Assembly: GCA_036264835.1 (NCBI GenBank)
Contig: DATAQE010000142.1
Span: 312-64,311 of the forward strand
Direction: 5' to 3'
From: Candidatus Elarobacter sp.
Lineage (GTDB): Bacteria; Vulcanimicrobiota; Vulcanimicrobiia; Vulcanimicrobiales; Vulcanimicrobiaceae
DNA length: 64,000 nucleotides
In this document: positions 20,531-41,113 of the stretch, piece by piece
Layout of the letters: every line of letters starts with the position of its first letter
Numbering within the stretch: position 1 is the first letter of the stretch
Translations under genes and position numbers: made by a program
Notes under the pieces: generated by a model
The model's database searches: none
Seen by the model: the letters and a program-made list of their open reading frames with translations, nothing else
Told to the model about the DNA's origin: nothing

Positions 20531-20650
20531 CAATCCTTCGTAAACCGGGCACCAGCGTACCGCGCGGACGGTACCTCGTCTGCTAGGATACCGAGGGAGC
20601 AAGGACAGGAGAACCCGGCTAATGGAGCGGCGCGTCGCGTGCAGGATGCA

Positions 20651-22612
20651 ATGACCGCCTCGCGCTTTCAGACGCGAGCCGATGCCGCACATCCGCAAGC
20701 GCGCGGGCTCGACCGGCTGGCCGAAGCGGCGCGCAAGCCGCTCGCCGTGATCGCGGCCCCGGCCGGGAGCGGCAAGAGCGCGCTGCTGCGCGCGTTCGCC
20801 GCGCGTGAGGGCGCGGTCCTTATCGACCTCGCCGCCGGCGACGGCACCTTCCGCGGCGCGGTCCGGATGCTGTGCGACGCGCTGCGCGAGATCGCCCCGG
20901 GCGCGCGGCTCGCCTTCGCGAGCGCCTACGCGCGCGCCGCCGAACGCGGCGACCGCGCCACCTCGCTCGCGCGCTGGTTCGCGCGGTACGTCGACGATGC
21001 CGGCGTGACGATCGCGATCGACGCGCTCGACCGTCTCGGTGCGGAGACGCGCGCGTTCGCCGAGTTCGTGGAAGCGCTCGTGCGCGCCGCGCGCGACGCG
21101 CACGTCGTCATCGCCGCGCGCGACGACGCCGACCTTCCGGTGCCGCGCTGGTTCGCCGGCGAGCTGATCGCGATGCCGCTCGCCGCCGACGACGCGCGCG
21201 ACGCCGCCGGCGTCGCGACGAACGCGAAAACGAGTCCGACCGGCACCGCACCGGACCTCACCGTCGATGCCCTGCTCGAGCTCGGACGGGTTCGCGACGC
21301 TCTCGAGCTCGCGTCCCGCGCAGGTCCGATCGAGCGCGTGCGCGAGGTGCTGCGCGCGCACGGCTTGCAGCTCGAAGACCGCGGCGACGTGGACGTGGTC
21401 GAGGCGGCGCTCGACCTGCTCCCGCCCGACGACGATCCGGTGATCATGCTGCTCCGCGCCGTGCGCGAGGTCCGGCTCGGGCGCAGCGACACCTCGGAGG
21501 CCTGGTTTCGGCAGGCGCTGGCGCGCGCCGAGACACAGGCATTGAAGGCGGAAGCGGCATACCGCCTGGGCCGCGAGATCGTGCGGCGCGAGCGAAGCGA
21601 CGCGGTCGAGCTGCTCGAACCGTTCGCGAACGACGACGCGCTCGACGTCGCGCTGCGCTGCGCCATCTCGGCGGTGTTCGCCGAGGCGCTGCTCGTCGCC
21701 GGCCGCGAGGCCGAGTCGGTCGCCGCGATCGGCGCCGCGCTGCGCTACGCGGACCGGCTCGACGTTCCGGCCCGCGCGCATCTGCTCACCCGCGCGTCGT
21801 ACGTCGAGCTGTACGCGGGCGATCGCACGCGTGCGCGCGAATGCGCGCTCGCCGGCGCCGCGCTGGCCGAACAAGCGCAGCTCTACACCGTCGGTGCCGG
21901 CTCGTACAGCGTGCTCTACAACCTCGCCTACGAGGACGCCGGTCCTTCCGAGTCGCTGGTCTACCTCGAGCGCCTCGCGGAGTGCGCGGTCCGGACGGGG
22001 AACGTCGACTTCCATCTCTACGCGATCGTCGCCGCGTACGAGCTGCACGTCGAGCGCGGCGACGTCGCGGCGATCGAGCGGCTCGAGCACGACCTGCGCG
22101 AGTTCGATCTTCACTACGGCGCCGCGTCCGCGCTGCAAGGGCTGCTCCCCTCGCGCGCGCTGGTCGCCGCGTGGAGCGGCGCCTTCGCCTCCGCCTACGA
22201 CCTGCTCGCGCCGAGCGGGCCGCAACAGCAGAACTACGCCGACCGCGAAGCGTTGCGCTGGGCGGAGATCGCGCTCTACGCGGCCGCGGCGAACATGCGC
22301 GACGTCGCCGCGGCCGGCCTGCGGAGCTTCGCGGAGTCGTTCGCGCGCGACGAGCGCGCGACGCCGCACGCCGTGCGCGGTGCGATCCTGGCCTCGCTCG
22401 CCGCGCATCTCGCCGGCGTGACGCCGGAATGGCGCTGCGAGCATCCGGCCTCCGGCCGCCTCGGCGCGTTGAGCCGCGCCGTCGAGGCCGTCATCGCGCG
22501 GCTGCGCGGCGAGGCCGGCGCACAGCGGCTGCTCGACGCGTTCGACGATTTGCGGCGCCATGAGTTCGGCGGGCTCGCGAAGCTGTTCGCCGCGCTCCCG
22601 GAGGCCGTGTGA
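20651..22612 (+). CDS. MalT-like P-loop/TPR-like helical protein lacking C-terminal HTH
   Basis: LAVIAAPAGSGKS Walker A, degenerate Walker B (IAIDALD), helical Ala/Leu-rich repeats. Confidence 0.7.
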   Translation: MTASRFQTRADAAHPQARGLDRLAEAARKPLAVIAAPAGSGKSALLRAFAAREGAVLIDLAAGDGTFRGAVRMLCDALREIAPGARLAFASAYARAAERGDRATSLARWFARYVDDAGVTIAIDALDRLGAETRAFAEFVEALVRAARDAHVVIAARDDADLPVPRWFAGELIAMPLAADDARDAAGVATNAKTSPTGTAPDLTVDALLELGRVRDALELASRAGPIERVREVLRAHGLQLEDRGDVDVVEAALDLLPPDDDPVIMLLRAVREVRLGRSDTSEAWFRQALARAETQALKAEAAYRLGREIVRRERSDAVELLEPFANDDALDVALRCAISAVFAEALLVAGREAESVAAIGAALRYADRLDVPARAHLLTRASYVELYAGDRTRARECALAGAALAEQAQLYTVGAGSYSVLYNLAYEDAGPSESLVYLERLAECAVRTGNVDFHLYAIVAAYELHVERGDVAAIERLEHDLREFDLHYGAASALQGLLPSRALVAAWSGAFASAYDLLAPSGPQQQNYADREALRWAEIALYAAAANMRDVAAAGLRSFAESFARDERATPHAVRGAILASLAAHLAGVTPEWRCEHPASGRLGALSRAVEAVIARLRGEAGAQRLLDAFDDLRRHEFGGLAKLFAALPEAV

Positions 22613-23556
22613 GCGCGCACCTGCTCGACGAGGGTTTCACCCTGCACGGCGACGGGATCGCGGCGAGCATCGTCGCGCGCCTGCAGCACGGCGGCGATCC
22701 GGTCCCTTCGATGGTGACGCGCGCCGTCGCCGAGAGCTTCGTCGCGCGCGCCGCCGCGCTCCGTTCGGACGCCGACCGCGAGGCGTTGCTCGAGTGGATC
22801 GCCGAGATCTGCGCGACCTACGGCGACGTCGCCGGACTGCGCGCTCTGCTGGAGACGCTCCCCGCGGAGCTCGCGCGCAGCGCCCGTGAGCTCATCGGGC
22901 GCCCGGTGCGCGGTGCCGCCGTCGACGAGCTCGAACGCGACGTTCTCGAAACCGTAGCGCGCGCGTGGCGCCCGCTCGCGCGTCCCCGCGACGAGCGGCT
23001 GGACGAGGTCGACGCGCGGATCGACGCCCTAGTCGTCCGCCTCGAGCACCGCGATCCCCTCAGCTCCGAGCATTCGCGCGCGGTCGCCGGGTGGTGCTCG
23101 CGGCTCGCGCGGCGGCTGGGGCTCGATGCGGCCGAGGTCACCTTCGCGACGCGCTGCGGGCTGCTGCACGACGTCGGGAAGGCGCTGACCCCGCTCGAGA
23201 TTTTGAACGCCCCGCGCGGGCTCACCGACACCGAGTGGAAGATCATGCGCGCCCACGCGGCGGCCGGCGACAAGCTCGTTCGCGGGGTCCCGGAGCTGCG
23301 GCCGTTCGCGCCGGCGGTGCGGAGCCATCACGAGCGGCTCGACGGCCGCGGGTACCCCGACGGTCTCCCGGCGGCGGCGATCCCGCTGACCGCGCGGATC
23401 GTCGCGGTCGCCGACTGCTTCAACGCGATGATCGGGCGGCGGCCGTACCGCGTCCCGATGGCGCCGTCCCGCGCGCTCGAGGAGCTGACGCGCAACCGCG
23501 GCACCCAGTTCGATCCCGAGATCGTCGACGCGATGGTCGAGGTCGTCCAGGGCTGA
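22609..23556 (+). CDS. HD-GYP domain cyclic dinucleotide phosphodiesterase
   Basis: EHSRAV, LLHDVGK, HHERLDGRGYPDGL, VADCFNAM..RPYR, GTQFDP. Confidence 0.93.
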   Translation: MSAHLLDEGFTLHGDGIAASIVARLQHGGDPVPSMVTRAVAESFVARAAALRSDADREALLEWIAEICATYGDVAGLRALLETLPAELARSARELIGRPVRGAAVDELERDVLETVARAWRPLARPRDERLDEVDARIDALVVRLEHRDPLSSEHSRAVAGWCSRLARRLGLDAAEVTFATRCGLLHDVGKALTPLEILNAPRGLTDTEWKIMRAHAAAGDKLVRGVPELRPFAPAVRSHHERLDGRGYPDGLPAAAIPLTARIVAVADCFNAMIGRRPYRVPMAPSRALEELTRNRGTQFDPEIVDAMVEVVQG

Positions 23557-23575
23557 ACCTTTACGGTTCGAACGC

Positions 23576-23589
23576 GGGACCTTTGACCT
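23576..23589 (+). promoter_or_regulatory. Operator-like site GGGAC-N4-GACCT
   Basis: GGGAC CTTT GACCT, 78 nt upstream of the peptidase start. Confidence 0.35.
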
Positions 23590-23666
23590 AGGGCCGGGTA
23601 CAGAGGGTTGGGGCGGCCAGGAAGGCACGAGGGTCCATCGCGGACCCACGACACGGAGGTTCGGAA

Positions 23667-24938
23667 ATGCGGAGATCAGCGTTATCGCTCTTGCTCGTTG
23701 CGGCGTTCGCGCTCGCAGCTTGCGCCCAAAGCGGAGGCGTCTCCGCGATACCGGGCGGCGGTGGGGCTCGCCTGGGCCAGACCCTGCGCGCGATCCCGAT
23801 CGATCCCTCGCCGACGCCGACCCCGTCGTCGGGCGGCCTCCTCGGCGGTCTGATCGGCGGCTTGCTGGGCGGCGTCGTCGGGATCTTGGGCGACCTGACC
23901 TGTGGCCTCACCGGCGGGCTCACCTGCCACGTGCTCGCCGGGAGCGGGACCCAGGGCCAGCCGGCCGGGACGCCCGCGTACCAGCTTTCCGGGCTGCATC
24001 CCGCCGATCTGCAGAGCGCCTACGAGCTCCCGTCGTCCACGGCGGGCGCCGGTCAGACGGTCGCGGTCGTGATCGCGTACGACAACCCGAACCTCGAGGC
24101 CGACCTCGGCGTCTTCCGCAAGACGTTCGGGCTGCCGGCGTGCACCACGAGCAACGGCTGCTTCAAGAAGATCGCGCAGTCCGGCACGACCGCGAACCAA
24201 GGCTGGGGCCAGGAGGCGGCGATCGACGTGCAGATGGTCTCGGCGGTCTGCCCCAACTGCAAGATCCTCGTCTCCGAAGCATCCGCGGCGACCGACGTCG
24301 CGCTGCTCGCCGCCGCGAAGAGCGCGGTCGCCGACGGCGCGACGGTCGTGAGCAACAGCTACAGCATGCCCGAGGACACGAGTGAGAACGATGCGGCGTA
24401 CGACATCGGCGTCCCGTTCGTCTTCGGAGCCGGCGACACCGGAGCGGGTGCGCAATGGCCCTCGGCCTCCTCGCACGTGATCGCGGTCGGCGGCACCACC
24501 CTCACGCGCAGCTCGAACGCCCGCGGCTGGTCGGAGACCGTCTGGTCAGGCTCCGGCGGCGGCTGCAGCAAGTACGTCGCGAAGCCGGCGTGGCAACTCG
24601 ACGCCGGCTGCGCGAACCGCACCGCGAACGACATCGCCGCCTATGCCGATCCGAATCCCGGCGTCGCGGTCTACGACAGCTACCTCAGCAGCAAGCCCGG
24701 CTGGCGCACCTACGGCGGCACCAGCGTCGCGGCGCCGATCGTCGCCGGCTCGATCGCGCTCGCCGGCAACGGCACGAGCGTGCTGACCGACGCGTCGTAC
24801 ATCTACGCGCACTCCGGCTCGCTGAACGCGATCACCTCGGGTCACAACGGCTCGTGCACGACGTATCTCTGCAACGCCGTGAACGGCTACAGCGCACCGG
24901 CCGGCAACGGCTCGCCGCACGGAGTCGGGGCGCTTTAG
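23667..24938 (+). CDS. S53/S8 subtilisin-like peptidase lipoprotein
   Basis: Lipobox LAAC, EAAID, VSNSY, GAGDTG, GGTSVAAP. GGAGG RBS. Confidence 0.88.
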   Translation: MRRSALSLLLVAAFALAACAQSGGVSAIPGGGGARLGQTLRAIPIDPSPTPTPSSGGLLGGLIGGLLGGVVGILGDLTCGLTGGLTCHVLAGSGTQGQPAGTPAYQLSGLHPADLQSAYELPSSTAGAGQTVAVVIAYDNPNLEADLGVFRKTFGLPACTTSNGCFKKIAQSGTTANQGWGQEAAIDVQMVSAVCPNCKILVSEASAATDVALLAAAKSAVADGATVVSNSYSMPEDTSENDAAYDIGVPFVFGAGDTGAGAQWPSASSHVIAVGGTTLTRSSNARGWSETVWSGSGGGCSKYVAKPAWQLDAGCANRTANDIAAYADPNPGVAVYDSYLSSKPGWRTYGGTSVAAPIVAGSIALAGNGTSVLTDASYIYAHSGSLNAITSGHNGSCTTYLCNAVNGYSAPAGNGSPHGVGAL

Positions 24939-29164: not shown

Positions 29165-30415
29165 TTAACGGACGATCGAGTCGGCGACCAGCGTCGCGTA
29201 GATCTTCGAGAGCTTCTCGGCGTCGGAGACGAGCATCGTCTGGAAGTGGTTCTGGATCTGGTCGCGGGTGAACGTCGTCACCGCCGCGCCGACGTTGAGG
29301 TCGCGGATCGCGCTCTCGGCGGCCTGCGTGTTGACGCTCGCGACGTTCCCGTCGTTCGCGGCCTCTTGGAGCGAGACGGTCTGCGCGCCGACCGACGCGC
29401 GCACGGCGCCCAGGGAAGAGATCGCGTAGTCGAGCCGGTACTCGGCGGCCTCGTTCTGCAGGTCGTTGCCGAGGATCACCTCGTTCACCCCGAGGTTCGT
29501 CGAGCTGAGCCCCGGGATGTCGACCGAGAGGATGTCGCCTTCGGCATCGCCGGTGTTCACCTGCAGCGCGCCGCCGTTCGCCTTCGTCTGTGCCGGGAGC
29601 GAGACGATCAGCGCGTTCTTCCCGACGTCGTTCGGCGAGAGGGCGCCCATGTTGAACGCGAGCACCTGCGGCCCCCAGCCGTTCTGCGAGTTCTGCAGGA
29701 ACGTGGGCTGGCCGGGCGCCGGCGGCATCAGCCCGGTCGGCGTGTTCGAGCCGTTCGGGACGTCGAGCGAGACGGTCTGATCCGGGCCGAACGAGGTCTC
29801 CTGGCTCCCGATCGTCACCGTGATGCTCACGTTGTCGCTGACCGGATCGTACGAGTCGACGGTGAGCAGGTTCGCGAACTGCGGCCCGCTGGCGGGGGTG
29901 TACGGCGCGTTCGGGTCGATCGTCGTGTCGATCAGCGAGCCGCCCCCGGCGAGATCGGCGTTGAAGATCAGCAGCCGCGAGGACTCGGCCGGGATGCTCG
30001 AGGCGCTGCCGTCGAGCAGCGCGCGGCCGTTGAACGAGGTCGTCGCCGCGATGTGGTCGATCTCGAGCCGCAGCTGGTCGAGCTCGGACTGCAGGTTCGC
30101 GCGGTCGTCGGTGCTCAGCAGGTCGCTGCGGCCTTGGATGACGAGCGCGCGCATGCGCTGGAGCAGCGCGGCGATCGAGGTCATCGCGCCTTCGGCGACC
30201 GAGAGCGCGTTGCCGGCGTTCTGGATCTCGTGGACGCCCTGGTCCATCCCTTGGACGCGCGTGGCGAGCGACTGCGAGATCGCGAGCCCGCTCGGGTCGT
30301 CCGCCGCCGAGTTGACGCGCAAACCCGACGCGAGCCGAGCGGTGTCGGTCGCGAGATCACGCTGCGTCTTCAAGTTCGCGCTCAGCGCGAGCCCGCTCAG
30401 ACTCAGAACGTCCAT
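29165..30415 (-). CDS. fliC: Flagellin
   Basis: RLASGLRVNSAADDPSGLAIS, AEGAM..LQRMRAL, TTSFNGRALLDGS, RASVGA, AESAIRD. Confidence 0.9.
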   Translation of the reverse strand: MDVLSLSGLALSANLKTQRDLATDTARLASGLRVNSAADDPSGLAISQSLATRVQGMDQGVHEIQNAGNALSVAEGAMTSIAALLQRMRALVIQGRSDLLSTDDRANLQSELDQLRLEIDHIAATTSFNGRALLDGSASSIPAESSRLLIFNADLAGGGSLIDTTIDPNAPYTPASGPQFANLLTVDSYDPVSDNVSITVTIGSQETSFGPDQTVSLDVPNGSNTPTGLMPPAPGQPTFLQNSQNGWGPQVLAFNMGALSPNDVGKNALIVSLPAQTKANGGALQVNTGDAEGDILSVDIPGLSSTNLGVNEVILGNDLQNEAAEYRLDYAISSLGAVRASVGAQTVSLQEAANDGNVASVNTQAAESAIRDLNVGAAVTTFTRDQIQNHFQTMLVSDAEKLSKIYATLVADSIVR

Positions 30416-30488: not shown

Positions 30489-30516
30489 CTATCGGCACCG
30501 AGGCGTCGCCGGCTTA
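30489..30516 (-). promoter_or_regulatory. Sigma28 (FliA/SigD) promoter of flagellin
   Basis: Minus strand TAAG-N16-GCCGATAG versus consensus TAAA-N15/16-GCCGATAA. Confidence 0.75.
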
Positions 30517-30588: not shown

Positions 30589-33500
30589 GTGCGTCCCGTT
30601 GTGCGCCGCGTGATCGCGGCCGCGGGCGCCGCATCTCTGACCGCCTCGGCGTTCTGCCTCGCGTCGGATACGGCGCTCCGCGCGGCTCCGCTTCTCGCGG
30701 TCCGGCTTCACCTTCCGTTCACCGCGCCGCGGCTCGCGCTCGACTCGCCGCCGGCCTCGCCCTCGCCCGCGCCGGTCGCGGTCGCGGCGCCCGGCCCGTT
30801 GCCGGCCTCGCCGCGCCCCCGCCGCCGCTCGTGGCTCGGGCAGGGCCCGATCGTGCTCAAGGGCGACGGGACGTACCAGATCGCGCTGAACCGCGCGAAC
30901 CGCAACGGGCTCAGCGACGCGTCCGACAACTACTCGACCGCGCTCTCGCTGGTCGCCGAGCGCCGCACCGAGCAGAGCGCGCTCTCGTTCTCGAGCGCGT
31001 TCGGCTACGGCGCGGGCAGCTTCAACGCCGGCTCGCTGATCGTCGGCTACCGCACCCCGCGCTACGGGCTGACCTACGGCCAGGTGACCGGGCCCAGTGA
31101 GAGCCAGCTCCAGATCGGCGGCTTCGCGCGCGGCGTCAACCTCTCGGTCCCGGTCCGCGCCGGCGATCTCTCGCTGGTCGCCGCCACGACGCAGCAGACG
31201 AACCAGGAGACCTACCGCGTCTACGGCGCGCGGCGCAGCTGGAACGGCCTGGGCGGCTTCCTCTCCCTGGCGCAGTACTACTCGGCCTCCGAGAGCGGGC
31301 CCGGCCACCAAGCGATCACGGATTTCGGCTACCGGCGCTACGGCGCGAAGCTCTCGACCGACACCGAGCTCGCGATCTCGTCGAACCACGCGGTCGCCGG
31401 CGTGAGCGACGGCGCGCAGCTGGCCGGCGCGTTCCACGCCGACCTGCAAGGGAAGACGACGTTCGCGACGCTCGGCTTACAATACGATCCGCGCGGCTTC
31501 CAGACGCTGAACGGGAACCTGCAGGGCGGGCTCAACGGCGACCTCACGCTGCGCCGGCACTCCGAACGCTTCGGCGAGGCGGACCTCGACCTCGGCCACG
31601 CCGACGCCCGGATGGACGACGGCTCGCTGCAGCACGACAACCGCCTCACGCTCTCCGGCGGGCGGAGCTGGAACGCGTTCGGGTTCCAGTACGTCGCCGG
31701 GCTCGACGGCCTGCACGGCGCGGGGACGACCTCGCTCCAGCGGACCGGCGCGTTGACGCTCACGCAGTCGCTCAAAGGGATCGCGCTCTTCGAGACCTAT
31801 CAGACGACCTCGGTCTCGGGGAGCAGCGGCGACGCCGCGCAGCGGCAGCTCGCGGTCGGCGCGAGCCGGCAGCTGCTGGGCGGGATGGTCGCCTACCAGT
31901 TCGCGCACAGCAACTCCAGCGGCGGCCAGAGCAACGGCGACGGGCTCTCGCAGTCGCTCTCGTACCGCCGCACGATCGGGAAGAAGCTCGACGCGCAGCT
32001 GACCGAGACGGTGCAGCAGACCGCGAACAACGGGATCGCCTCGACGCTCGCCGACACCTCGCTCTCGCTGGTCCGGCGCCTCTCGCACGTCGTCGCGCTG
32101 CAGGTCACCGGCGACATGTTCCGCCAGTCGGGGCTCGGCGGCGGGACGGGGAGCGGCGTCCACGTCTCGCTGGTCGGGCCCTTCGGGTTCGGGCAGCCGG
32201 CGCAGACGACCGGGCGCGCGAACTAACGTCCCCGCGGTCATCCGCAGCGTCGTGACGTACTCGACCTCGGCGACGCCGTTCGCCTACAACGCGCCGACGC
32301 TGCGCGGCTACAACAACGCGCTGATCGTCCTCGACGGCCGGATCACGCAGCGCACCGACTCCTCCGGCGAGTTCGAGTTCCGCTTCGTCCCGCCGGGCGC
32401 GCACACGATCCGGATCGACGCCGCGACGATCCAGCCCGGGCTGATCAGCGACCGCGAGTACCAGACGGTGACCGTCCTGGGCGGGCAGACGACGACGATC
32501 CAGTTCAACGTGGGGAACTTCGCCGGGGTCGCCGGGACCGTCGTCGCGGCCGACGCGAACGGGAAGAAGCGCGGCCTGGGCGGGGTCGGGATCGCGATCG
32601 ACGGGATCCAGGCGGTGACCACGACACCCGACGGCCACTACGCGATCGGCCGGCTGAGCCCCGGCGCGCACACCGTGGAGATCGTCGAGTCCACGCTCCC
32701 GACCAGCGTCGCGTTCGTCGCCGACAAGAAGAAGACGGTCACGGTCACGCCGGGGACCTCGACGCCGCTGAACTTCGTCGCGACCCCGCTCGGCTCGATC
32801 GCCGGGAACGTCGTCGCGCCGTCCGACGGCGGCTTCGGCCAGCTCACCGGGCTCAAGAACGTCTACGTCGTCGCCGAGCCCGGCGAGCACGCGGTGATCA
32901 CCGACGACGACGGCTCCTTCTTGATGGACAACATGCCGCCGGGGACCTACACGCTCAGCGTCGACGCGGACACGATCCCCGACGGGCTCGGCGTCCTCTC
33001 CGGACCCGACGGCCCGGTCGCGCTCGAAGGTGGCGCGGCGCTCTCGGGGATCGTCTTCAAGCTCGGGGCGGCGGCGAAGAACGTCGTCTTCACCTTCAAC
33101 GACGGGAAGCGCCAGGCGATCCAGGTGACCACCGACCCGTCGGTGGTCCCGCCGGGCGGGCTGCTGCGGATCCAGGCCCGCAGCTCGGCGAAGGACGTCA
33201 AGGAGATGGTCGTCGAGAGCGACGTCTTCGGCGGCTTCCCGCTCCGGCTCGACCCGCGGCTCGGCGTGTGGACCGGGACCGTCGTCGTCCCCTCGCTGGT
33301 GAAGGGCGACTACGCGCTGAGCGTGAGCGCCCACCGCAAGGACGTCACCGACGCCTCGGCGCTGATCGCCGTCGACCCGCGGATCCCGCTCTTCGCCTAC
33401 CGCATCAGCCCGCGCGACGCCGAGCCCGGCCACACGATTCGCGTCACGCTCAAGAGCGTCGCGTCGGTCGAGGAAGGCGACGCGATCCTGTTCGAGGACG

Positions 33501-33634
33501 GCTATAAAGTGCTGCTCCCCAAGCCGACCGGACACGTCTTCGCGTTCGACATGCGGCTCTGGCACAAGGGGCTCCCGTACTCCGGTTCGATCCTTACCAA
33601 GCGAGGGCAGAGCTACCCGCTAAGTCTGCGTTAA
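30589..33634 (+). pseudogene. Usher-like outer-membrane beta-barrel protein with C-terminal Ig/prealbumin-like repeats; frameshift at about 32224
   Basis: ORF 30589-32226 has a signal peptide and amphipathic beta-strands. It continues in another frame (NVPAVIRSVVTYS.. to 33634) with repeated TD/TT.xG.F/Y...PG.HT/YT units. May be an assembly error. Confidence 0.65.
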
Positions 33635-33660
33635 GCGGGCAAGTTGGCCGCATCACACCC

Positions 33661-33688
33661 TAAGGACCAAAGTCCTAATTTCCGAAGA
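33661..33688 (+). promoter_or_regulatory. Putative sigma28-like promoter with embedded inverted repeat, upstream of major subunit
   Basis: TAAG-N16-TCCGAAGA; perfect AGGAC-CAAA-GTCCT at 33663-33676. Confidence 0.5.
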
Positions 33689-33750
33689 AGCAAGGGAGGG
33701 GCGTTCCGCCTCTTCTCTCAGCGTCCCTTACACATCGAAAGGATTCGAAC

Positions 33751-34524
33751 GTGAAAAGAGCAGTCGCTGCTCTCGTCATGCTGGGGATCGCGACCGCCTC
33801 GGCAGCGCCCAGCATGGCTGCCTCGACGGTCTACGGTTCCGCACAGCTCAAGTACACCGTCAATGCGACGGCGTCGATCTCGATCGCCGTGAACTACGAC
33901 GCGAACGGCGCGATCCAGCCGGCCGTCGCCTCGTCGATCCTCCCTTCGACCGCCGGCTCGTGCGCGAACGGCGTCGCGGAAGCGTCCAACGCGACGCTGA
34001 CCTTCGGCGGCATCACGCCCCCGACAGCCGCCGGCAGCTACACGACCTGCTACTACAAGAACGCGCTCTCCGTCGGCGTCAACTCGAACGACTCGGCCGG
34101 CGTGAACGTCGTGGAGTACGTCGACCAGATCCAGACCGGTACGGCGATCTGCGCGTACCGCCTCGACCTCACGCCGAAGGTGAAGCCCACCCAGTCCAGC
34201 GCGACGGCGATCACGGGGCAGAACACCTGCGCCGCGCCGACCGGCGGTGCGGCCGGGACGGCGCTCAGCGCGCTCGGCGCGGTGACGGCCGGCGCAGGCT
34301 ACGGTGCCCAGGGCAACCCCGGCGCGCCCGCGACGGTCGTCGTGGCCGGCACGCCGACGTCGACCGCGTACACCGCGGGCGGCTTCTCGATCTACAGCGT
34401 GGCGGGTTCGCCGCCGCCGGTCGGCTGGAACTTCATGGGTCAGGACGTGAGCCTGAGCGTGAGCCCGGCCGCGTCGTCCGGCGCGCAGACCAGCGTGATC
34501 ACGGTCGCGCTGATCCCGAGCTGA
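33751..34524 (+). CDS. Putative major fimbrial subunit (SCPU/WxL-like fold)
   Basis: GAAAGGA RBS, signal peptide, N-terminal YGSAQLKYTV, LTFGG, VNSNDSAG, 4 Cys, C-terminal SVITVALIPS. Confidence 0.65.
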   Translation: MKRAVAALVMLGIATASAAPSMAASTVYGSAQLKYTVNATASISIAVNYDANGAIQPAVASSILPSTAGSCANGVAEASNATLTFGGITPPTAAGSYTTCYYKNALSVGVNSNDSAGVNVVEYVDQIQTGTAICAYRLDLTPKVKPTQSSATAITGQNTCAAPTGGAAGTALSALGAVTAGAGYGAQGNPGAPATVVVAGTPTSTAYTAGGFSIYSVAGSPPPVGWNFMGQDVSLSVSPAASSGAQTSVITVALIPS

Positions 34525-34539
34525 TCGCGTAGCACTGCC

Positions 34540-34567
34540 TCAACCCGCCGTACGGAAACGCCGAGAA
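34540..34567 (+). promoter_or_regulatory. Putative sigma28-like promoter of chaperone gene
   Basis: TCAA-N16-GCCGAGAA ending 9 nt before ATG 34576. Confidence 0.45.
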
Positions 34568-34575
34568 TACAAGGG

Positions 34576-35361
34576 ATGCGTCCCTCCCGAATTCTCACCG
34601 TCGTCGCGGTCGCCGGAGCCCTCGGGCTCGCGCTGACCGTCCCGTCCTCGGCGGACATCTCGGTCGACGTCTCCCCCGCGAAGTACGAGCTGCAGACGCA
34701 GCCCGGCAAGCAGGAGACGTTCCCGATCACGGTTCGGAATACGAGCGGCGCCGCGGTGCACATCGTGGCGTCGCTCTCGGACTACGTGGTCGGGCCGAGC
34801 GGCAACTACGCCTTCGCAGCGCCCGGCAAGACGCCGTATTCGCTCGCGAAGGACGTCACGATCAACCCGCGCGAGTTCGACCTCGAGCCGGGAGCGTTCA
34901 CCCAGGTGCGCTTCTCGGTCGACGTCCCGTCGAGCGCGAGCGGTGAGTACAGCAACCTCGTGTTCTTCACGACGCGTCCGACCCGCCACGGCGGCGGACT
35001 CTCGATCGTGGAGCGGATCGCGTCGAAGATCTACGTGATGATCCCGGAGACGACGCGCATCGGCGGCGAGATCAACGACGTGAAGACGCAGTCGCTCGGC
35101 GACGGTCAGCACTACTTGGTCGACTTCCGCAACACCGGGAACGCGCACGTCTACCTCAGCGGGCGCGTCGAGATCAAGCAGGGCGGAACGGTCGTCGACC
35201 GCGTCGCCTTCCCGCAAGGGATGCTGGTCGAGCGCTCGGGGAAACGGCTGATCGACGCCGTCGGTAAGAAGCTCGCACCCGGCTCGTACTCCGTCGTCGC
35301 GATGGTCGACTACGGCGGCCCGAACCTCGTGGCGGGTCAAGCGAACATCACCGTGCGCTGA
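34576..35361 (+). CDS. Putative fimbrial chaperone (PapD-like / DUF916-like, two Ig domains)
   Basis: Signal peptide, VDVSPAKYEL, ITVRNTS, INPREFDLEPG..QVRF, second domain FRNTGNAHV. Confidence 0.75.
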   Translation: MRPSRILTVVAVAGALGLALTVPSSADISVDVSPAKYELQTQPGKQETFPITVRNTSGAAVHIVASLSDYVVGPSGNYAFAAPGKTPYSLAKDVTINPREFDLEPGAFTQVRFSVDVPSSASGEYSNLVFFTTRPTRHGGGLSIVERIASKIYVMIPETTRIGGEINDVKTQSLGDGQHYLVDFRNTGNAHVYLSGRVEIKQGGTVVDRVAFPQGMLVERSGKRLIDAVGKKLAPGSYSVVAMVDYGGPNLVAGQANITVR

Positions 35362-35402
35362 CCGCGCACGCCGCACGCAACGGAACGGATTCCGGAGACC
35401 GC

Positions 35403-38400
35403 ATGTTTTCACTCTCGCGAACGCTGGCGTTTCTCGCCATCGTCGTCGTCGCCGTCCTCGGCGCCGGCGGGTTCGCCGCTCTCGCGCAGTCGACGTCGCA
35501 GTCGGCTGGGCGCACGACCGGCGGTCCTCGCACCACCACCACGGCCCCGACGCCGCCCCCGCTCCCGTACGGCGACCAGTCGCGCACGGCGCAGGGCGCG
35601 AAGCGCTCGCTGAGCACCGACGCCGGGAACGGCGATCTGCTCGCCGCGCTGGCGCGGCTCACCGCCGGGACGAGCTCGTCCTCGCCGATGCTGCGCTATC
35701 TCGGGCCGCGGCCTCCGATCCCGAAGCTCACCGATCTGCTGCACCACAGGGCGCGCTGGAAGATGTCGGCGAGCGGCGGGAGCATCGTGCTCACCGGCAC
35801 GTCGAACCAGCCGTATCTCGACGACCAGACGGTCTCGTACGGCAGCATGGTCTTCTGGCTCTGCCAGAACCTCACGCCGAACACGTTGTACCGCTACGTG
35901 CTGTTCTCGCCCGACGGCTACGGTTACATCCCGCAGCCGAAGACGTACGTCACCAGCGCTCAGTACCCGACCGCGAACACGACGAACTTCACGACCGACG
36001 CGACGGGTCGCTGCGACCACACCGGCGGCGGCACGCTGTACCCGTTCTGGGCGCAGGTCTACCTGCAGACGCCGCTCCAGGGCTCGGTCAGCTCGGGCGG
36101 CACGACCAGCGATCCGACCGGGACGTTCAACGGCGTCGCGAACCCGCGCAGCGGGACCGACTCGCCGTACTCGGGCGTGTGGGCGATCGCGGCGCAGAAC
36201 GCGACGACGAACGCGTTCGAGGCGGTCGCGTACACCGTCATGGTGGGTACGCTGAACTTCAACACGTACTCCGATGCGGGGTACTCGGCGAAGTCGGCCG
36301 ACTTCACGTCGGGCTCGACCGTCTACGTCTCCGCATCCGGGTTGAACCCCTCGCACTTCTATGCGTTCGGGTTCGTCAACACGTCGGGCAACGGTCTGCC
36401 GTGCGTCTACTCGTTTCCGACCGGCGCGCAGAACAGCTCGAACGCGACCTGCTTCCTCGCCGGCGCGACCGGGATCTTGCCGACGAACGGCACGCTCACC
36501 GGGCAGTTTCCGACGCCGGCGAGCGGGCCCAACGCGGCCGGGACGTACAGCGTCCAGCTCTTCGACGCGACGACGAACGACTTGATCTCGACGCAGCAGA
36601 TCTCGCTGAACCCCTCGAGCGTCGCCTGGAACGCGCTGCAGCCCTACAACGGCGCGTCGACCGGGACGAACCTGAACGACACCTTCGCGACGGACGGCTT
36701 GATCAACATCGCGTCGGGCGCGCCGTCCACCGACCAGTCGGTGCAGGGGCTGAGCTTCTCCGGCAGCGGGACGGTTAACGGTCACGTCTACAAGCTGACG
36801 ATCAGCAACGGCAACGGCGTCGTCCTGAGCGGGACGACCTCCGACACGGGGACGAACACCTACGGCGCCGCGCCGCAGTTCTTCAACGCGCCGGCGAGCT
36901 TCACCGCGACGGGGACGACGTGGGCGCAGAACAACGTCCCGTTCCCGCTGAACGCGACGAACTTCACCGCGTTCGGCGCGACCCAGACGCCGTTCGCGCC
37001 GAACGTCTACACGGCACAGCTCTACGACGTGACCGCCGCCTCCGTCGTCGGCTCGAAGTCGTTCCGCATCGTCTCGTACGCGGGCCAGTTCCAGTGGACG
37101 AGCCCCGCCGGCGGCTACGTCAACGCGCTCGCCGCGAGCGCGGCGACGCCCGTCACCGCGACGCTGACCAACACCGCCGGGACGCTGTTCGGCTCGTGGA
37201 ACGGCGACCCGGTCGTCGCGGTGAAGATCAGCGGCGACAGCGGCGGCGTCGTGACGATCAACCGCCAGGGCTGCCCGGGCGCGTGCGTCGCGACGACGAC
37301 CGACTCCAGCGGTCAGACCTGGAACATCGGCGCGGTCACGGGGAACACGATCACGCTCACGCCCGCGGTCGCGGGCCAGTCGCTGGCGCTCGGCGCGACG
37401 CTCCCGATCCCGATCACCGTCTCCGCGGCGACGAACGCGTGCACGACGGCCTGCATCCTGCGCACGCAGATCACGCCGCTGCACGGGATCGCGATGAGCC
37501 AGATCAACAACACGATGACGAACCTGGCGACGAACGGGCTCAACGTCCTCGGCAGCACGACGAGCGGCACCAACACGCAGCCGACGTACTCGATCGCGGT
37601 CGGGCGCTACAACGGCACCCAGCTGGGGACGAACCCGCCGCGCTACACGGAGATGATGTACGTCTCGGGGACGAACGGCGCGCCGAGCACCGGGACGTAC
37701 ACGATGACGCTCACGGTGAACAACACCGGCGGGCCGGCCGCGATCACCGCGATCGAGTTCGTGATGCCGCCGACCGTCGACCCCAACCGCCAGACGCCCG
37801 CCGTGACCTCCGCGATCGTGAACGGGACGGCGCAGACCTGGACCGTCCGCAACCAGAACGGCTCGAACGGCGCGGCCGCCGACGCGGCGCTCGGCCCGAA
37901 CGCGTTCGCGCTCGCGACGACGAGCGCCGGCATCCCGGTCGGGAAGAGCGCGACCTTCACGATCACCATCCCGATGCTGCTCGCCTCGTTCCCGTTCCAA
38001 GAGATCAACGCGATCGCGAACTACAAGGGGACGCCGTTCACCATCGGCGCGACGAACACGCTGACGAACGCGGTCGCCGGGACGAACAACATCGACTCGA
38101 CCGAGCTCGCCGTCTTCTCGCTGAACCCTTCGTTCATGAACGCGTCGATCACGCCGTCGGTCGTCCCCGCGCTGGCGGGGACCACGGCGACCTTCAAGCT
38201 GGTCAACACGTCGACCGGTCTCGACGCGAACCCGGACTACATCAGCCAGCTGCTGATCACCGTGCCGACCGGCGCGATCCCGAACTCGGTCACCGTCAGC
38301 TCGCCGAACCAGAGCGGCGTCACCTGGAACGCGAACGCGACCGGGACCGCCGGCCAGTGGCTGATCGACCTGTGCGCGGTCGGCACCGCGCCTTCGCCGC

Positions 38401-39677
38401 CGCAGACCTCGACGCCGTGCGCGGGGACGACCGACAAGAATGCGCTCCCGCCGGGCGCGGAGCTCGACGTGACGTTCCACTACACGACCGCGCCGACCGT
38501 CGGGACGTACCCGATCAACTGGACCGTCGTCGGCGCGAACGGCGGCGCGGTGATCGCGGCGAGCGGTGTCCCGCCGGCCTCGAACGCGCAGATCCCCGAC
38601 CTCGTCGTCGCGAACACGACCGCGCAGACGAGCTTCACCTACGCGGGCGGCTACATGGCGGTGCCGGCCTACCCGCCGACGATCACGGCGGTGACGCCCG
38701 GGAGCCAGCCGGTGGTCGGCTCCTGGGCCAACTACGCCGAAGGCAACGGGTTCGTCTTCGAGCTGCACAACAACGGCTCGACGACGATCACCGACGTCAG
38801 CATCGCGATCCCGTGGGCGAACACCTCGGGCCAGCTCTTCGACACCGCGTACCCCTGGTGGGTCGATCAGAACTACGTCTACGTCTACGGCGCGGGCTCG
38901 AGCGGGGCGAAGTGCAGCGGCACCGGCATCAACTCGCTCACCGAAGCCGTGAACGGCTCGCCGGGGACGTCCGGACTGCTTCGGCTCTCCGGCTGCAATG
39001 TCGGCGTCGGCCAGAACCTCGACGTGGCGTTCTACGCGCGCAACCCGTACGACGTCGGCTCGACGTTCCGCTTCGACGCCAGCGTCGCGACCGGGAACGC
39101 GACCCCGCCCGACCCGCGCACCGCGGGGAACGCGAACACGCTCCCGCTCTACACGCTCTCGAACACCGTCCGCATCATCGCCGACGCGCGGCTCGCGATC
39201 CAGATCCCGACCGGCGGGGCGTACTCGCCGGCGCTGACCACCGCGGTACCGGCGCTGAACTGCCCGGGCTGCACGTACAGCTCCGCCGGCGCGCTCCCGC
39301 TGATCAACCTGAACCAGCTCACCGGGACGGCGAACTACGTCGACGCGCTCGCGATCTCGGCGTACACCGACTCCGCGAACGGCTGGAATCTCTCGGTCTC
39401 GGCCGACGTGAACCCGTCGACCTCGAACGGCTCGCTCAGCACGTGGGTCACGCCGCAGTCGGCGGCCGCGGGCGGGACGTACACGAGGTCCGTCACGTCG
39501 GCGACGCTGGTGCCGACGAGCGGCGCGCTGACGCTCTCGAGCTGGACCGGGACGAGCCCGGTGCCGAAGAAGCCCGTCGACAACCTGATGGGCTACACCG
39601 TCACCGTCAACCCGTTGTCCGTGAACAACAACGCGACGACGACGGTCACCCTCACCTACACGCTGATCGCGAATTGA
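35403..39677 (+). CDS. Large secreted adhesin, 1424 aa, with C-terminal pilin/WxL-like domain
   Basis: Signal peptide, T/S/N/G-rich beta domains with Cys pairs, C-terminal YTDSANGWNLSVS..VTLTYTLIAN. Confidence 0.72.
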   Translation: MFSLSRTLAFLAIVVVAVLGAGGFAALAQSTSQSAGRTTGGPRTTTTAPTPPPLPYGDQSRTAQGAKRSLSTDAGNGDLLAALARLTAGTSSSSPMLRYLGPRPPIPKLTDLLHHRARWKMSASGGSIVLTGTSNQPYLDDQTVSYGSMVFWLCQNLTPNTLYRYVLFSPDGYGYIPQPKTYVTSAQYPTANTTNFTTDATGRCDHTGGGTLYPFWAQVYLQTPLQGSVSSGGTTSDPTGTFNGVANPRSGTDSPYSGVWAIAAQNATTNAFEAVAYTVMVGTLNFNTYSDAGYSAKSADFTSGSTVYVSASGLNPSHFYAFGFVNTSGNGLPCVYSFPTGAQNSSNATCFLAGATGILPTNGTLTGQFPTPASGPNAAGTYSVQLFDATTNDLISTQQISLNPSSVAWNALQPYNGASTGTNLNDTFATDGLINIASGAPSTDQSVQGLSFSGSGTVNGHVYKLTISNGNGVVLSGTTSDTGTNTYGAAPQFFNAPASFTATGTTWAQNNVPFPLNATNFTAFGATQTPFAPNVYTAQLYDVTAASVVGSKSFRIVSYAGQFQWTSPAGGYVNALAASAATPVTATLTNTAGTLFGSWNGDPVVAVKISGDSGGVVTINRQGCPGACVATTTDSSGQTWNIGAVTGNTITLTPAVAGQSLALGATLPIPITVSAATNACTTACILRTQITPLHGIAMSQINNTMTNLATNGLNVLGSTTSGTNTQPTYSIAVGRYNGTQLGTNPPRYTEMMYVSGTNGAPSTGTYTMTLTVNNTGGPAAITAIEFVMPPTVDPNRQTPAVTSAIVNGTAQTWTVRNQNGSNGAAADAALGPNAFALATTSAGIPVGKSATFTITIPMLLASFPFQEINAIANYKGTPFTIGATNTLTNAVAGTNNIDSTELAVFSLNPSFMNASITPSVVPALAGTTATFKLVNTSTGLDANPDYISQLLITVPTGAIPNSVTVSSPNQSGVTWNANATGTAGQWLIDLCAVGTAPSPPQTSTPCAGTTDKNALPPGAELDVTFHYTTAPTVGTYPINWTVVGANGGAVIAASGVPPASNAQIPDLVVANTTAQTSFTYAGGYMAVPAYPPTITAVTPGSQPVVGSWANYAEGNGFVFELHNNGSTTITDVSIAIPWANTSGQLFDTAYPWWVDQNYVYVYGAGSSGAKCSGTGINSLTEAVNGSPGTSGLLRLSGCNVGVGQNLDVAFYARNPYDVGSTFRFDASVATGNATPPDPRTAGNANTLPLYTLSNTVRIIADARLAIQIPTGGAYSPALTTAVPALNCPGCTYSSAGALPLINLNQLTGTANYVDALAISAYTDSANGWNLSVSADVNPSTSNGSLSTWVTPQSAAAGGTYTRSVTSATLVPTSGALTLSSWTGTSPVPKKPVDNLMGYTVTVNPLSVNNNATTTVTLTYTLIAN

Positions 39678-39688
39678 CGGGCCGAGAC

Positions 39689-40357
39689 GTGAAGCGTGCT
39701 CTCACGGCCGCCGCGGCGGCGCTCCTCCTGACGACGGCGGTCCCGCAGATCGCGCGGTCGGCGCCCGCGCAAGGCTCGGCGCAGCTCAATTACAAAGTGC
39801 TGCCGACCGTCAAGGCGCAGGTCACGCCGAACTATCTCAGCGGCTACGGCCCGCAGGGCGGTCTGGGCAGCGGCGTGACGCCCGCGGCGGGCCCGAACGC
39901 CTCGCTGCAAGGCGGGACGGTCGACTTCGGCAACGTCGTGGTCGGTTACACGTATCTGTACAAGTACGCGGCGCAGGTCGCGGTGCAGACGAACGACTCG
40001 GCCGGCTTCGTCGTGTACGGCGAGGGCGCGACCGATCTGAACGGGAGCAATCCGGTCCCGGCGCCGTCGACGTGGCCGATCTTCTCGACGCTCTACTGGC
40101 TGCCGTCGAGCTCGGCGAACTCGCCGTTCTCGGCCGCGACCTCGTTCAACAAGACCAACGGCAGCCCGATCGCCGGCGGCGCGAACGGGATCGACTACTC
40201 GGGGACCGGCGGCGTGCCGTCCGCGATGTCGGTCGTCTGGTCGAATCCGACCTCGGGGAACGTGACCCAAGGCTACGACTACCAGCTGCGCCTCTCGGGC
40301 GCGGTCCCGCCGAGCCAGTTCAACGTCTACATCGTCTACACGGTGATCGGAAATTGA
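39689..40357 (+). CDS. Putative minor fimbrial subunit, paralog of 33751 protein
   Basis: GTG start, signal peptide, QGSAQLNYKV, VDFGN, VQTNDSAG, C-terminal VYIVYTVIGN. Confidence 0.68.
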   Translation: MKRALTAAAAALLLTTAVPQIARSAPAQGSAQLNYKVLPTVKAQVTPNYLSGYGPQGGLGSGVTPAAGPNASLQGGTVDFGNVVVGYTYLYKYAAQVAVQTNDSAGFVVYGEGATDLNGSNPVPAPSTWPIFSTLYWLPSSSANSPFSAATSFNKTNGSPIAGGANGIDYSGTGGVPSAMSVVWSNPTSGNVTQGYDYQLRLSGAVPPSQFNVYIVYTVIGN

Positions 40358-41091
40358 GACGCCCGAACCTTCTCGCGCTGCTCGCGCTCGCGGTCCTCGC
40401 CACGCTGACGGTCGTCTCGCAAGCCGACGCGCTCACCGGGCTCAAGACGTACAAGCTCGTCACGATCGACGTCGTCGTCACGCCGAGCCCGATCGCGTAC
40501 GCGCCGCCGAAGAAATCGCAGTATCCGAGCCTCGCCGCGCCGCGCGTGCAGATCGCGGCGTCGAGCACGGCGGCGTGGGACGTCGCGCCCGGGGGCGGCG
40601 ACGCGGCACTCCCGCTGATGATCGCGCAGATCAGCGCGCAGGCGACGCCCGTCCCGGTGCAGTTCGTCGCGAAAGCCGATCCGAACGCGCAGTACCTGCA
40701 CGTGATCCCGCACGAGCCGCCCGGCGGTTTCGCCGGCGCGTACGGGACGACGGTCTTCCCGTGCGCGTTCGAGATCTACACCTACTACACGAACAGCTAC
40801 CGGCTTCAGGACTGGGGCTACGGGACGAACAAGACCGCCGGTGCGGCCTCCGGCACGTTCCCGATCGAGAACTATCCGACGACGAGCAATCTCTCGTGGG
40901 CGGTCCCCGACTTCGGCCCGACGGTCACGCCGTACTGGAACCAAGGGCCGGCCGGTGAGACGACGTGGCTCGGCGCGGTGAAGCAGGCGCAGCAGCACTG
41001 CATCGACCTGACGCTGACGGTGCCGAACGCGCAGGCGTCGGGCTCGTTCACCGCGGTCGTCGAGTATGCGCTGTACGTAACGCTGCCCTAG
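40354..41091 (+). CDS. Putative minor fimbrial subunit/secreted protein
   Basis: TTG overlapping the previous stop (TTGA), signal peptide, 2 Cys, C-terminal LTLTVPNAQASGSFTAVVEYALY. Confidence 0.62.
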   Translation: MRRPNLLALLALAVLATLTVVSQADALTGLKTYKLVTIDVVVTPSPIAYAPPKKSQYPSLAAPRVQIAASSTAAWDVAPGGGDAALPLMIAQISAQATPVPVQFVAKADPNAQYLHVIPHEPPGGFAGAYGTTVFPCAFEIYTYYTNSYRLQDWGYGTNKTAGAASGTFPIENYPTTSNLSWAVPDFGPTVTPYWNQGPAGETTWLGAVKQAQQHCIDLTLTVPNAQASGSFTAVVEYALYVTLP

Positions 41092-41092
41092 T

Positions 41093-41113
41093 GGGTCCGC
41101 CTTCGGCGGACCC
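41093..41113. terminator. Hairpin between convergent genes (probable terminator)
   Basis: GGGTCCGC-CTTCG-GCGGACCC directly after the operon stop. No strong U-tract. Confidence 0.6.

Follow-up and report, generated by a model that had tools for sequence, protein, structure and literature searches.

The window analyzed here is a 64,000-nt stretch of a Candidatus Elarobacter metagenome-assembled genome (MAG), taken from contig DATAQE010000142.1 of assembly GCA_036264835.1 (C159 in our numbering), and our subject is a candidate pilus operon at positions 30589-41113. The host MAG comprises 4.1 Mb, is 84% complete and has a G+C content of about 70%; proteins 85-98% identical to its own carry source names in Candidatus Elarobacter, Eremiobacterota. 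Seven open reading frames (ORFs), p1 to p7, lie on the + strand, flanked by flagellin (divergent) and DUF4149 (convergent) genes. Since p1 and p2 form a single gene in related genomes, the cluster amounts to six co-oriented genes for secreted proteins, and it ends at a hairpin. Every ORF except p2 begins with an N-terminal hydrophobic leader, and none has a later transmembrane segment. An original prediction, made from the letters of the window without database searches, had proposed a divergent chaperone-usher (CU) or WxL-like fimbrial system with paralogous subunits and a giant tip adhesin. Its ORFs were all found where it had placed them on the + strand, and the C-terminal strands that it quoted, the GWNL motif of p5 and the terminal hairpin at 41093-41113 were present as well. 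So was its strong ribosome-binding site before 33751, which reads AAAGGA and is invariant in six species. The features of the locus are as follows.

30589-32226, + strand: p1, 5′ part of the usher-like gene; signal peptide, Pro/Ala-rich linker of ~60 aa, predicted large outer-membrane β-barrel, premature TAA.
32222-32228, + strand: frameshift site, with 2 nt fewer than intact relatives.
32229-33634, + strand (listed ORF 32252-33634): p2, 3′ part of the usher-like gene; three CarboxypepD_reg-type and two further β-sandwich domains.
33661-33688, + strand: sigma-28-like promoter candidate before p3; TAAG-N16-TCCGAAGA.
33694-33717, + strand: G+C-rich stem-loop in the p3 leader; GGGAGGGGCG-TTCC-GCCTCTTCTC, followed by the AAAGGA ribosome-binding site.
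33751-34524, + strand: p3, probable major pilin, 257 aa; signal peptide, YGSAQLKYTV, four conserved Cys, C-terminal strand SVITVALIPS.
34576-35361, + strand: p4, predicted periplasmic chaperone, 261 aa; signal peptide, two β-sandwich domains, WxLIP (DUF916/DUF3324) type.
35403-39677, + strand: p5, giant secreted protein and probable tip protein, 1424 aa; C-terminal GW.L domain, end TLTYTLIAN.
39689-40357, + strand: p6, subunit, 222 aa; signal peptide, GSAQLNYKV, core ..TNDSAGFVVY.., C-terminal VYIVYTVIGN.
40354-41091, + strand: p7, subunit, 245 aa; TTG start overlapping the p6 stop, N-terminal strand LKTYKLVTIDVVV, one conserved Cys pair, end ..AVVEYALYVTLP.
41093-41113, + strand: terminal hairpin; GGGTCCGCC-TTCG-GGCGGACCC.

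The host is a diderm, because its genome encodes both BamA (87.7 bits) and LpxC (284 bits). An outer membrane containing lipopolysaccharide has been described in the only cultured member of the phylum (PMC9758169).

AlphaFold2, supplied with 27 homologues, modelled p4 as two β-sandwiches with the shape of a pilus chaperone (pLDDT 89.5). When this model was compared with the PDB using Foldseek, the WxL-interacting protein (WxLIP) of Enterococcus faecium came first (9i1y/9i25, E 3e-13). It was followed by CfaA (E 3e-10) and CsuC (E 9e-10), then by YadV, Caf1M, CupB2, FimC and others. The two-Ig-domain chaperone-like protein of the original prediction thus has a modelled pilus-chaperone fold, with WxLIP as the nearest solved structure and the alternate and archaic CU chaperones behind it. 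Profile searches gave the same order. A profile of 84 p4-family representatives reached EfmWxLIP1 at E 6e-11 over both domains and the CU chaperone EcpB at E 0.003. The Pfam family PF06030 (WxLIP_PGBD/DUF916) was matched by 36 of the 84 top representatives and PapD_N by 5. Against PF06030, p4 itself scored 17.4 bits (E 0.0047), below the 27.3-bit cut-off, and it gave no match to PapD_N (PF00345) or PapD_C (PF02753) at E up to 1. Membership of p4 in the DUF916 (PF06030) and DUF3324 (PF11797) chaperones holds at the superfamily level.

There is no transmembrane segment in p4 after the signal peptide (the maximum 19-residue Kyte-Doolittle mean is 0.92). Among the 149 best representatives of the family, a candidate hydrophobic segment was found in four, in none of them at a C-terminus. 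The family is large: searched with a profile of close homologues, a set of 1.84 billion proteins yielded 12,546 clusters (50% identity), of which 4,498 had E <= 1e-10. Structures resembling p4 also occur in clusters from Deinococcota, Planctomycetota, Bacteroidota and Gemmatimonadota (TM-scores 0.78-0.87), and the Joint Genome Institute (JGI) annotates many p4 orthologues as 'P pilus assembly chaperone PapD'. Among the best representatives of the chaperone family, about one in three has a length of 470-620 aa and two matched stretches (P0303, P0306, P0308-P0312 and others), and from their sequences these look like tandem double chaperones in one polypeptide. At one further locus, L012, two separate chaperone genes alternate with two subunit genes.

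We modelled mature p4 together with mature p3, each with its own alignment. The complex reached an interface score (ipSAE) of 0.67, and the best control reached 0.00. The ipSAE mark is one attained by 58 of 80 solved complexes and by 2 of 110 mismatched pairs, which serves only as a rough guide since custom alignments were used. Contact agreement among the runs was at least 73%, and partner pLDDT was at least 75. The lowest-error residue pairs joined p4 142-149 to p3 249-255, and because the pairs ascend on both sides, the two strands are parallel. In the model, the first strand of p4 (27-37) contacts p3 38-47, and residues 24-37 of p3 lie outside the interface. This predicted geometry is that of donor-strand complementation as in CU and Elr systems, a likeness of arrangement and not a measure of binding. 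Modelling of the chaperone-subunit pair, proposed as a check of the original prediction, therefore returned donor-strand complementation.

The original prediction had aligned the subunits starting at 33751 and 39689 by eye, and hhalign bore out their paralogy (p3 versus p6, probability 97.8%, E 7.5e-13). Members of the p3 family were found only in records labelled Eremiobacterota. Neither p3 nor p6 nor p7 gave a Pfam match of any kind, SCPU (PF05229) included. After the leader, p3 and p6 both begin G-S-A-Q-L-x-Y-x-V, and distant orthologues keep G-S-V-K-L-x-W. An N-terminal strand of the form G-S-[AV]-x-[LA]-x-[YW] is thus kept across divergent orthologues of both proteins (for p6, in an alignment of 27), and it resembles the published WxL donor-strand consensus, small-x-G/A-x-V/I-x-F. 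This motif is lacking in p5 and p7. In relatives p7 always lies directly downstream of p6, to which it is related over the last two strands only (hhalign 81%, E 1.2e-5).

Two outside resemblances of p6 deserve mention. It weakly matched the NCBIfam model CPR_Pam_pilin_C (NF058581; E 0.0019, 18.3 bits versus a 55-bit cut-off), as did four of its orthologues, making 5 of the 27 family members, and this C-domain was not matched by p3, p5 or p7. By protein language model, it lies nearest to clusters without annotation from Melainabacteria, Saccharimonadota and Acidobacteriota (0.96-0.97); among named Atlas clusters, WxL came closest, at a score of 0.94, which we take as a lead.

The giant protein p5 is rich in Thr, Ala, Gly, Ser and Asn (14.5% Thr, 0.6% Glu). 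Its 14 cysteines fall into seven sequential close pairs, at residues 154/204, 334/350, 624/628, 680/684, 991/1006, 1171/1198 and 1287/1290. Composition and spacing suggest a disulfide-stapled stalk of many small domains, possibly glycosylated. The C-terminal domain carries a GW.L motif (GWNL at residue 1327) in which W and L do not vary among 10 orthologues. No Pfam match, PDB sequence match or recognisable adhesin domain was found in p5. For the tail alone, the nearest family-bearing Atlas cluster has a WxL domain in 20% of its members (score 0.89, a lead only). Of the 'giant tip adhesin' of the original prediction, the 1424-aa secreted protein with its GW.L tail stands, and the adhesin or tip role is one that we infer. 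As to the proposed WxL link, the GW.L motif of the p5 tail is invariant, but the subunits fall short of Pfam's WxL model (PF13731), which matched none of p3, p5, p6, p7 or their orthologues. The secreted subunits have no LPxTG-type motif; the sole LP.[TSA]G match in the cluster is LPYSG, inside p2.

In relatives, a single ORF of 980-1086 aa corresponds to p1 and p2 together, and all 69 of 69 longer homologues are fused single proteins (955-1036 aa). We modelled a full-length orthologue, P0123, which is 72% identical to p1 (pLDDT 73.8, pTM 0.45). The model consists of a leader, ~60 disordered residues, 26 β-strands at 92-538 (pLDDT 70-88) and five β-sandwich domains after the barrel. Because the number of barrel strands is even, these five C-terminal domains are predicted to be periplasmic, as in ushers. 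In a Foldseek search of the PDB, the top 10 matches of the model were all FimD/PapC ushers (E 9e-17 to 5e-13). VIA-align confirmed an outer-membrane barrel fold, with FimD at Z 14.9 (444 residues aligned) and PapC at Z 14.1. By sequence, p1 had no Pfam match and p2 matched PF13620 in three stretches (E 4e-20). The original prediction had described a beta-barrel-like protein with C-terminal Ig-like repeats and suggested comparing it with PapC. A 26-strand barrel and five β-sandwich domains were modelled, and ushers fill the top of the structural list, but there is no sequence signal for an usher and in this MAG the gene is split by a frameshift. We therefore call the protein 'usher-like', a label that reflects predicted architecture and context and not family membership.

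In four relatives the reading frame is uninterrupted at the position of the split (..GRANPNLPA.. / ..GRSNPNVPAVIRG..). The window reads ..GRAN-TAA at 32224-32226 and then goes on in the +1 frame; relative to it, a related strain in run X3 has two additional bases, CG, following 32224. Run X1 is the probable source run, and a Logan contig from it, an independent assembly (depth ~8), agrees exactly with the window over 31700-32352. From runs X2-X4, the parts recovered were short or divergent. Since the independent assembly repeats it, the frameshift is not an artefact of one assembler, and both assemblies may share the same reads. The 2-nt deletion may represent a genuine pseudogene or a variant within the population, and the usher-like copy in this MAG may be non-functional because of it. 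In the orthologous cluster L009, from a four-contig genome (G007:C2:39500-55500), numerous apparent frameshifts affect p1, p3 and p5; long-read assembly indel errors fit these better than decay.

Conserved co-occurrence of these genes in other genomes, a check named in the original prediction, was found as synteny. The chaperone p4 is present in 22 of the 24 genomes searched in the genus, in 4 of 5 in the sister family and in 1 of 11 in a third family, and p6 is present in 18 of the 34 genera of the order. Paralogous loci have the same parts in shuffled gene order. On three further, unrelated contigs (a Deferrimicrobium MAG and two metagenomes), three to five small unannotated ORFs, a chaperone homologue and a CarboxypepD_reg/SdrD_B protein of ~750 aa stand in a row. 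When the usher-like family was aligned by hhalign with a 787-aa neighbour of a distant chaperone, only the CarboxypepD_reg domains aligned; there was no alignment of the barrel.

The divergent neighbour of the usher-like gene is a flagellin gene (29165-30415, - strand; Flagellin_N E 1e-32), and the same divergent arrangement is found at four other loci in two families (L009, L010, L013 and L014). Upstream of flagellin, at 30489-30516 on the - strand, lies a sigma-28-like site, TAAG-N16-GCCGATAG. Within the 64 kb, the only two occurrences of the pattern TAAG-N16-NCCGAWRR precede flagellin and p3, with 0.03 expected by chance, a figure to be read with the pattern having been chosen post hoc. The CTAAG and CGA cores before p3 are conserved in six species in which the flanks diverge, and the genome encodes a FliA-type sigma factor. 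Between this promoter-like site and the invariant ribosome-binding site sits the stem-loop of the p3 leader, whose GGGGCG...CGCC is kept in six species against diverging flanks (-19.2 kcal/mol within 33690-33750); it may act in stability, attenuation or protein binding. The terminal hairpin, between the operon and the convergent DUF4149 gene, has a 10-bp G+C stem (-22.5 kcal/mol, z -2.28); it lacks a long T run and was not called by a simple terminator scan. Nothing above chance came from simple scans for sigma-70 promoters and terminators. Farther upstream (20531-24935) are genes for a STAND/AAA NTPase, an HD-GYP-type HD_5 protein and a subtilase-like protein, with no link to the pilus cluster seen.

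We conclude that the operon probably encodes a donor-strand pilus whose periplasmic chaperone is of WxL type and whose pore is usher-like, which is a predicted function. It would combine a chaperone-pilin core of the WxL/Elr type with an outer-membrane exit pore. In the literature that we found there was no description of this fibre type, and full-text searches gave no diderm, usher-equipped version. The original prediction of a divergent donor-strand pilus linking the CU and WxL/DUF916 families in a non-proteobacterial diderm is supported by the fold and profile of the chaperone, the complex model, the modelled outer-membrane barrel, and BamA and LpxC; the system belongs to neither the archaic Csu/SCPU nor the alternate CS1 families.

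The following assembly route can be proposed. All products would cross the inner membrane by the Sec pathway, for which the leaders are visible in the sequence. In the periplasm, soluble p4 is predicted to cap each subunit by inserting the strand at its domain junction (~142-149) parallel to the subunit's last strand, while its own first strand packs on the first core strand of the subunit. The GSAQLxYxV strand of p3 or p6 would stay free and later, by donor-strand exchange, take the place of the chaperone strand in the subunit before it; this step is suggested by the motif, by its conservation, and by analogy to ElrD and the CU pilins. From fold and gene linkage, the barrel protein of ~1000 aa would act as the usher: its 26-strand pore may let the fibre out, and its five periplasmic β-sandwich domains may dock the chaperone-subunit complexes. 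Because p5 has no donor strand and ends in a GW.L domain, it would enter first and sit at the tip. The shaft would be formed by p3, since this gene has the best ribosome-binding site and a sigma-28-like promoter of its own. That leaves p6 and p7 as putative adaptor or terminator subunits in this proposed order.

Several results weigh against a donor-strand pilus with a usher-like pore. On the subunit side, a search of the entire genome with the WxL model PF13731, at E up to 10, was empty, no pilin came from PDB searches with profiles of the p3 and p6 families, and the resemblance of p6 to Pam pilins lies below threshold (18 versus 55 bits). The tail of p5 aligned with p3 and p6 at an hhalign probability of just 0.5-2.6%, which is not significant; the best local register of that alignment places GWNLSV on ..SAGFVVY.. 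and ..SAGVNV... The pass of the p4:p3 model may reflect the network's memory of solved chaperone-subunit complexes, including 9i25, which is a WxLIP bound to a long WxL protein. For the barrel, the pTM of the P0123 model is only 0.45, and VIA-align scored porins (Z 15-17) as high as FimD, so that ushers and porins were not separated. The model has neither a plug insertion nor a folded usher N-terminal domain, no Usher (PF00577) Pfam match was found, and a PDB search with the barrel-family profile found no usher. Finally, the usher-like gene of the window carries the frameshift that recurs in the independent assembly of the same run.

Three other explanations were weighed against these data. 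In one, the cluster builds a static display complex on the outer surface and not a fibre: WxL-like and giant proteins would be exported through the barrel or anchored to it, p4 would be a folding scaffold only, and the subunits would not polymerise by donor-strand exchange. The modelling, which covers chaperone-subunit binding alone, is compatible with this, as is the lack of the p3/p6 donor motif in p7 and p5, and WxL clusters were long read as a 'platform' (bioRxiv 10.64898/2026.10.17.759780). Yet the free, conserved and amphipathic N-terminal strand of p3 and p6 would have no obvious role in such a complex, relatives carry three to five paralogous small subunits per locus, and the homologous Gram-positive system has been demonstrated to be a pilus. 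We consider a static complex unlikely. An unrelated envelope module is improbable. Such a module might pair a porin-like channel for uptake or export, bearing carbohydrate-binding-like domains, with secreted substrate-binding or S-layer-like proteins, p4 being a generic Ig tandem. The parity of porins with ushers in VIA-align would suit it, as would weak matches of the CarboxypepD_reg, fn3_5 and NPCBM_assoc types, which are typical of glycan-active proteins, and p5, which lacks a recognisable adhesin domain. Set against these are the specificity of the complex model, with its controls at 0.00 and its canonical donor-strand geometry, and the full-length profile homology of the p4 family to a chaperone with a solved subunit complex. 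Moreover, strict co-occurrence of the small paralogous subunits with the chaperone and a putative barrel protein is seen across phyla, and the operon contains no glycoside hydrolase or transporter genes.

In the third explanation, the operon descends directly within the archaic (Csu/SCPU) or alternate (CS1/CFA-I) CU pili, as a genuine though strongly diverged member, and is not of WxL type. In its favour are CfaA and CsuC as the best CU matches of p4, FimD and PapC at the head of the barrel's Foldseek list, and the PapD label that JGI gives to many p4 orthologues, together with the 5 of 84 representatives that touch PapD_N. But WxLIP beats all CU chaperones both by fold and by profile (6e-11 versus 0.003 for EcpB), and no protein of the window matches the PapD_N, PapD_C, Usher or SCPU models of Pfam at E up to 1. 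The usher-like model also has no plug or N-terminal domain, and the profile of its family finds no PDB usher. Direct CU descent is thus very unlikely, the least probable of the explanations considered. A donor-strand pilus with a WxL-type chaperone and a usher-like pore remains our preferred explanation.

A wider hypothesis goes beyond this operon, and we hold it tentatively, at a little short of even chances. It posits a widespread third lineage of donor-strand pili, in which a free periplasmic WxLIP-type chaperone would hand WxL/Pam-like subunits to a plug-less 26-strand usher analogue. The WxL, Pam and CU pili would then be branches of one ancient chaperone-guided principle, and the fibre of Eremiobacterota would be co-regulated with flagellin via sigma-28.

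The textbook examples of donor-strand pili are proteobacterial. Work of 2026 added Bacillota (WxL/Elr) and the candidate phyla radiation (CPR; Pam), each system being described as lineage-restricted and usher-less (bioRxiv 10.64898/2026.10.17.759780; PMC13278184). If our interpretation is correct, a soluble WxLIP-type chaperone together with an outer-membrane barrel in a diderm connects the WxL, Pam and CU systems and raises the question of ushers arising more than once. A very large set of unannotated operons, corresponding to the 12,546 chaperone clusters, would become annotatable. It would also give Eremiobacterota, an abundant and almost uncultured soil phylum, its first candidate adhesion fibre, possibly tied to the motility regulon.

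Among the closest known systems are the Elr/WxL pilus of Enterococcus faecalis and the WxL-WxLIP (Csc) clusters. WxL clusters build a donor-strand pilus with a transmembrane-anchored DUF916/DUF3324 chaperone and no usher, and have been reported as confined to Bacillota; a C-terminal transmembrane anchor is present in 96.7% of their chaperones (bioRxiv 10.64898/2026.10.17.759780). Their two-domain chaperone is the nearest to p4 by fold and profile, and its donor strand lies at the same place (ElrE 139-153; p4 ~142-149), parallel to the strand at the subunit's C-terminus. Small pilins with a free amphipathic N-terminal strand ending in an aromatic residue are common to both, as is a large protein with a C-terminal pilin-like module, a GW.L motif and no donor strand. 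They differ in that the host here is a diderm, p4 has no C-terminal transmembrane helix, and the operon includes an outer-membrane barrel protein, whereas Elr has no usher. Here there is also no LPxTG or sortase anchor subunit, and the subunits stay short of the Pfam WxL model.

With the CU pili (FimC/FimD, PapD/PapC, CfaA/CfaC, CsuC/CsuD and Caf1M/Caf1A), the operon shares a soluble periplasmic two-domain chaperone, a large outer-membrane barrel with periplasmic C-terminal β-sandwich domains, the predicted geometry of donor-strand complementation, and an operon logic of several paralogous subunits plus a large tip protein. In contrast to those systems, the operon has no match to PF00345, PF02753, PF00577 or PF05229. 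Its barrel has 26 strands in the model versus 24, lacks a plug and an N-terminal domain for chaperone docking, and is followed by five C-terminal domains versus two. Finally, WxLIP is a nearer match to p4 than any CU chaperone is.

Pam pili have been reported as exclusive to CPR (Ca. Mycosynbacter amalyticus; PMC13278184). Like the system proposed here, the Pam pilus is a donor-strand fibre outside Proteobacteria with Ig-like pilins and PapD/FimC-like chaperones, and p6 and four of its orthologues weakly touch the Pam pilin C-domain over a ..VDFG..YLYKYAA..TND..GF.. core, at scores far below the cut-off. The Pam system has no outer membrane or usher, whereas the host here has BamA and LpxC. 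Pam chaperones are anchored by a transmembrane segment, which p4 does not have, and Pam pilins are two-domain proteins with the donor strand in the linker, whereas the candidate donor strand of p3 and p6 is N-terminal.

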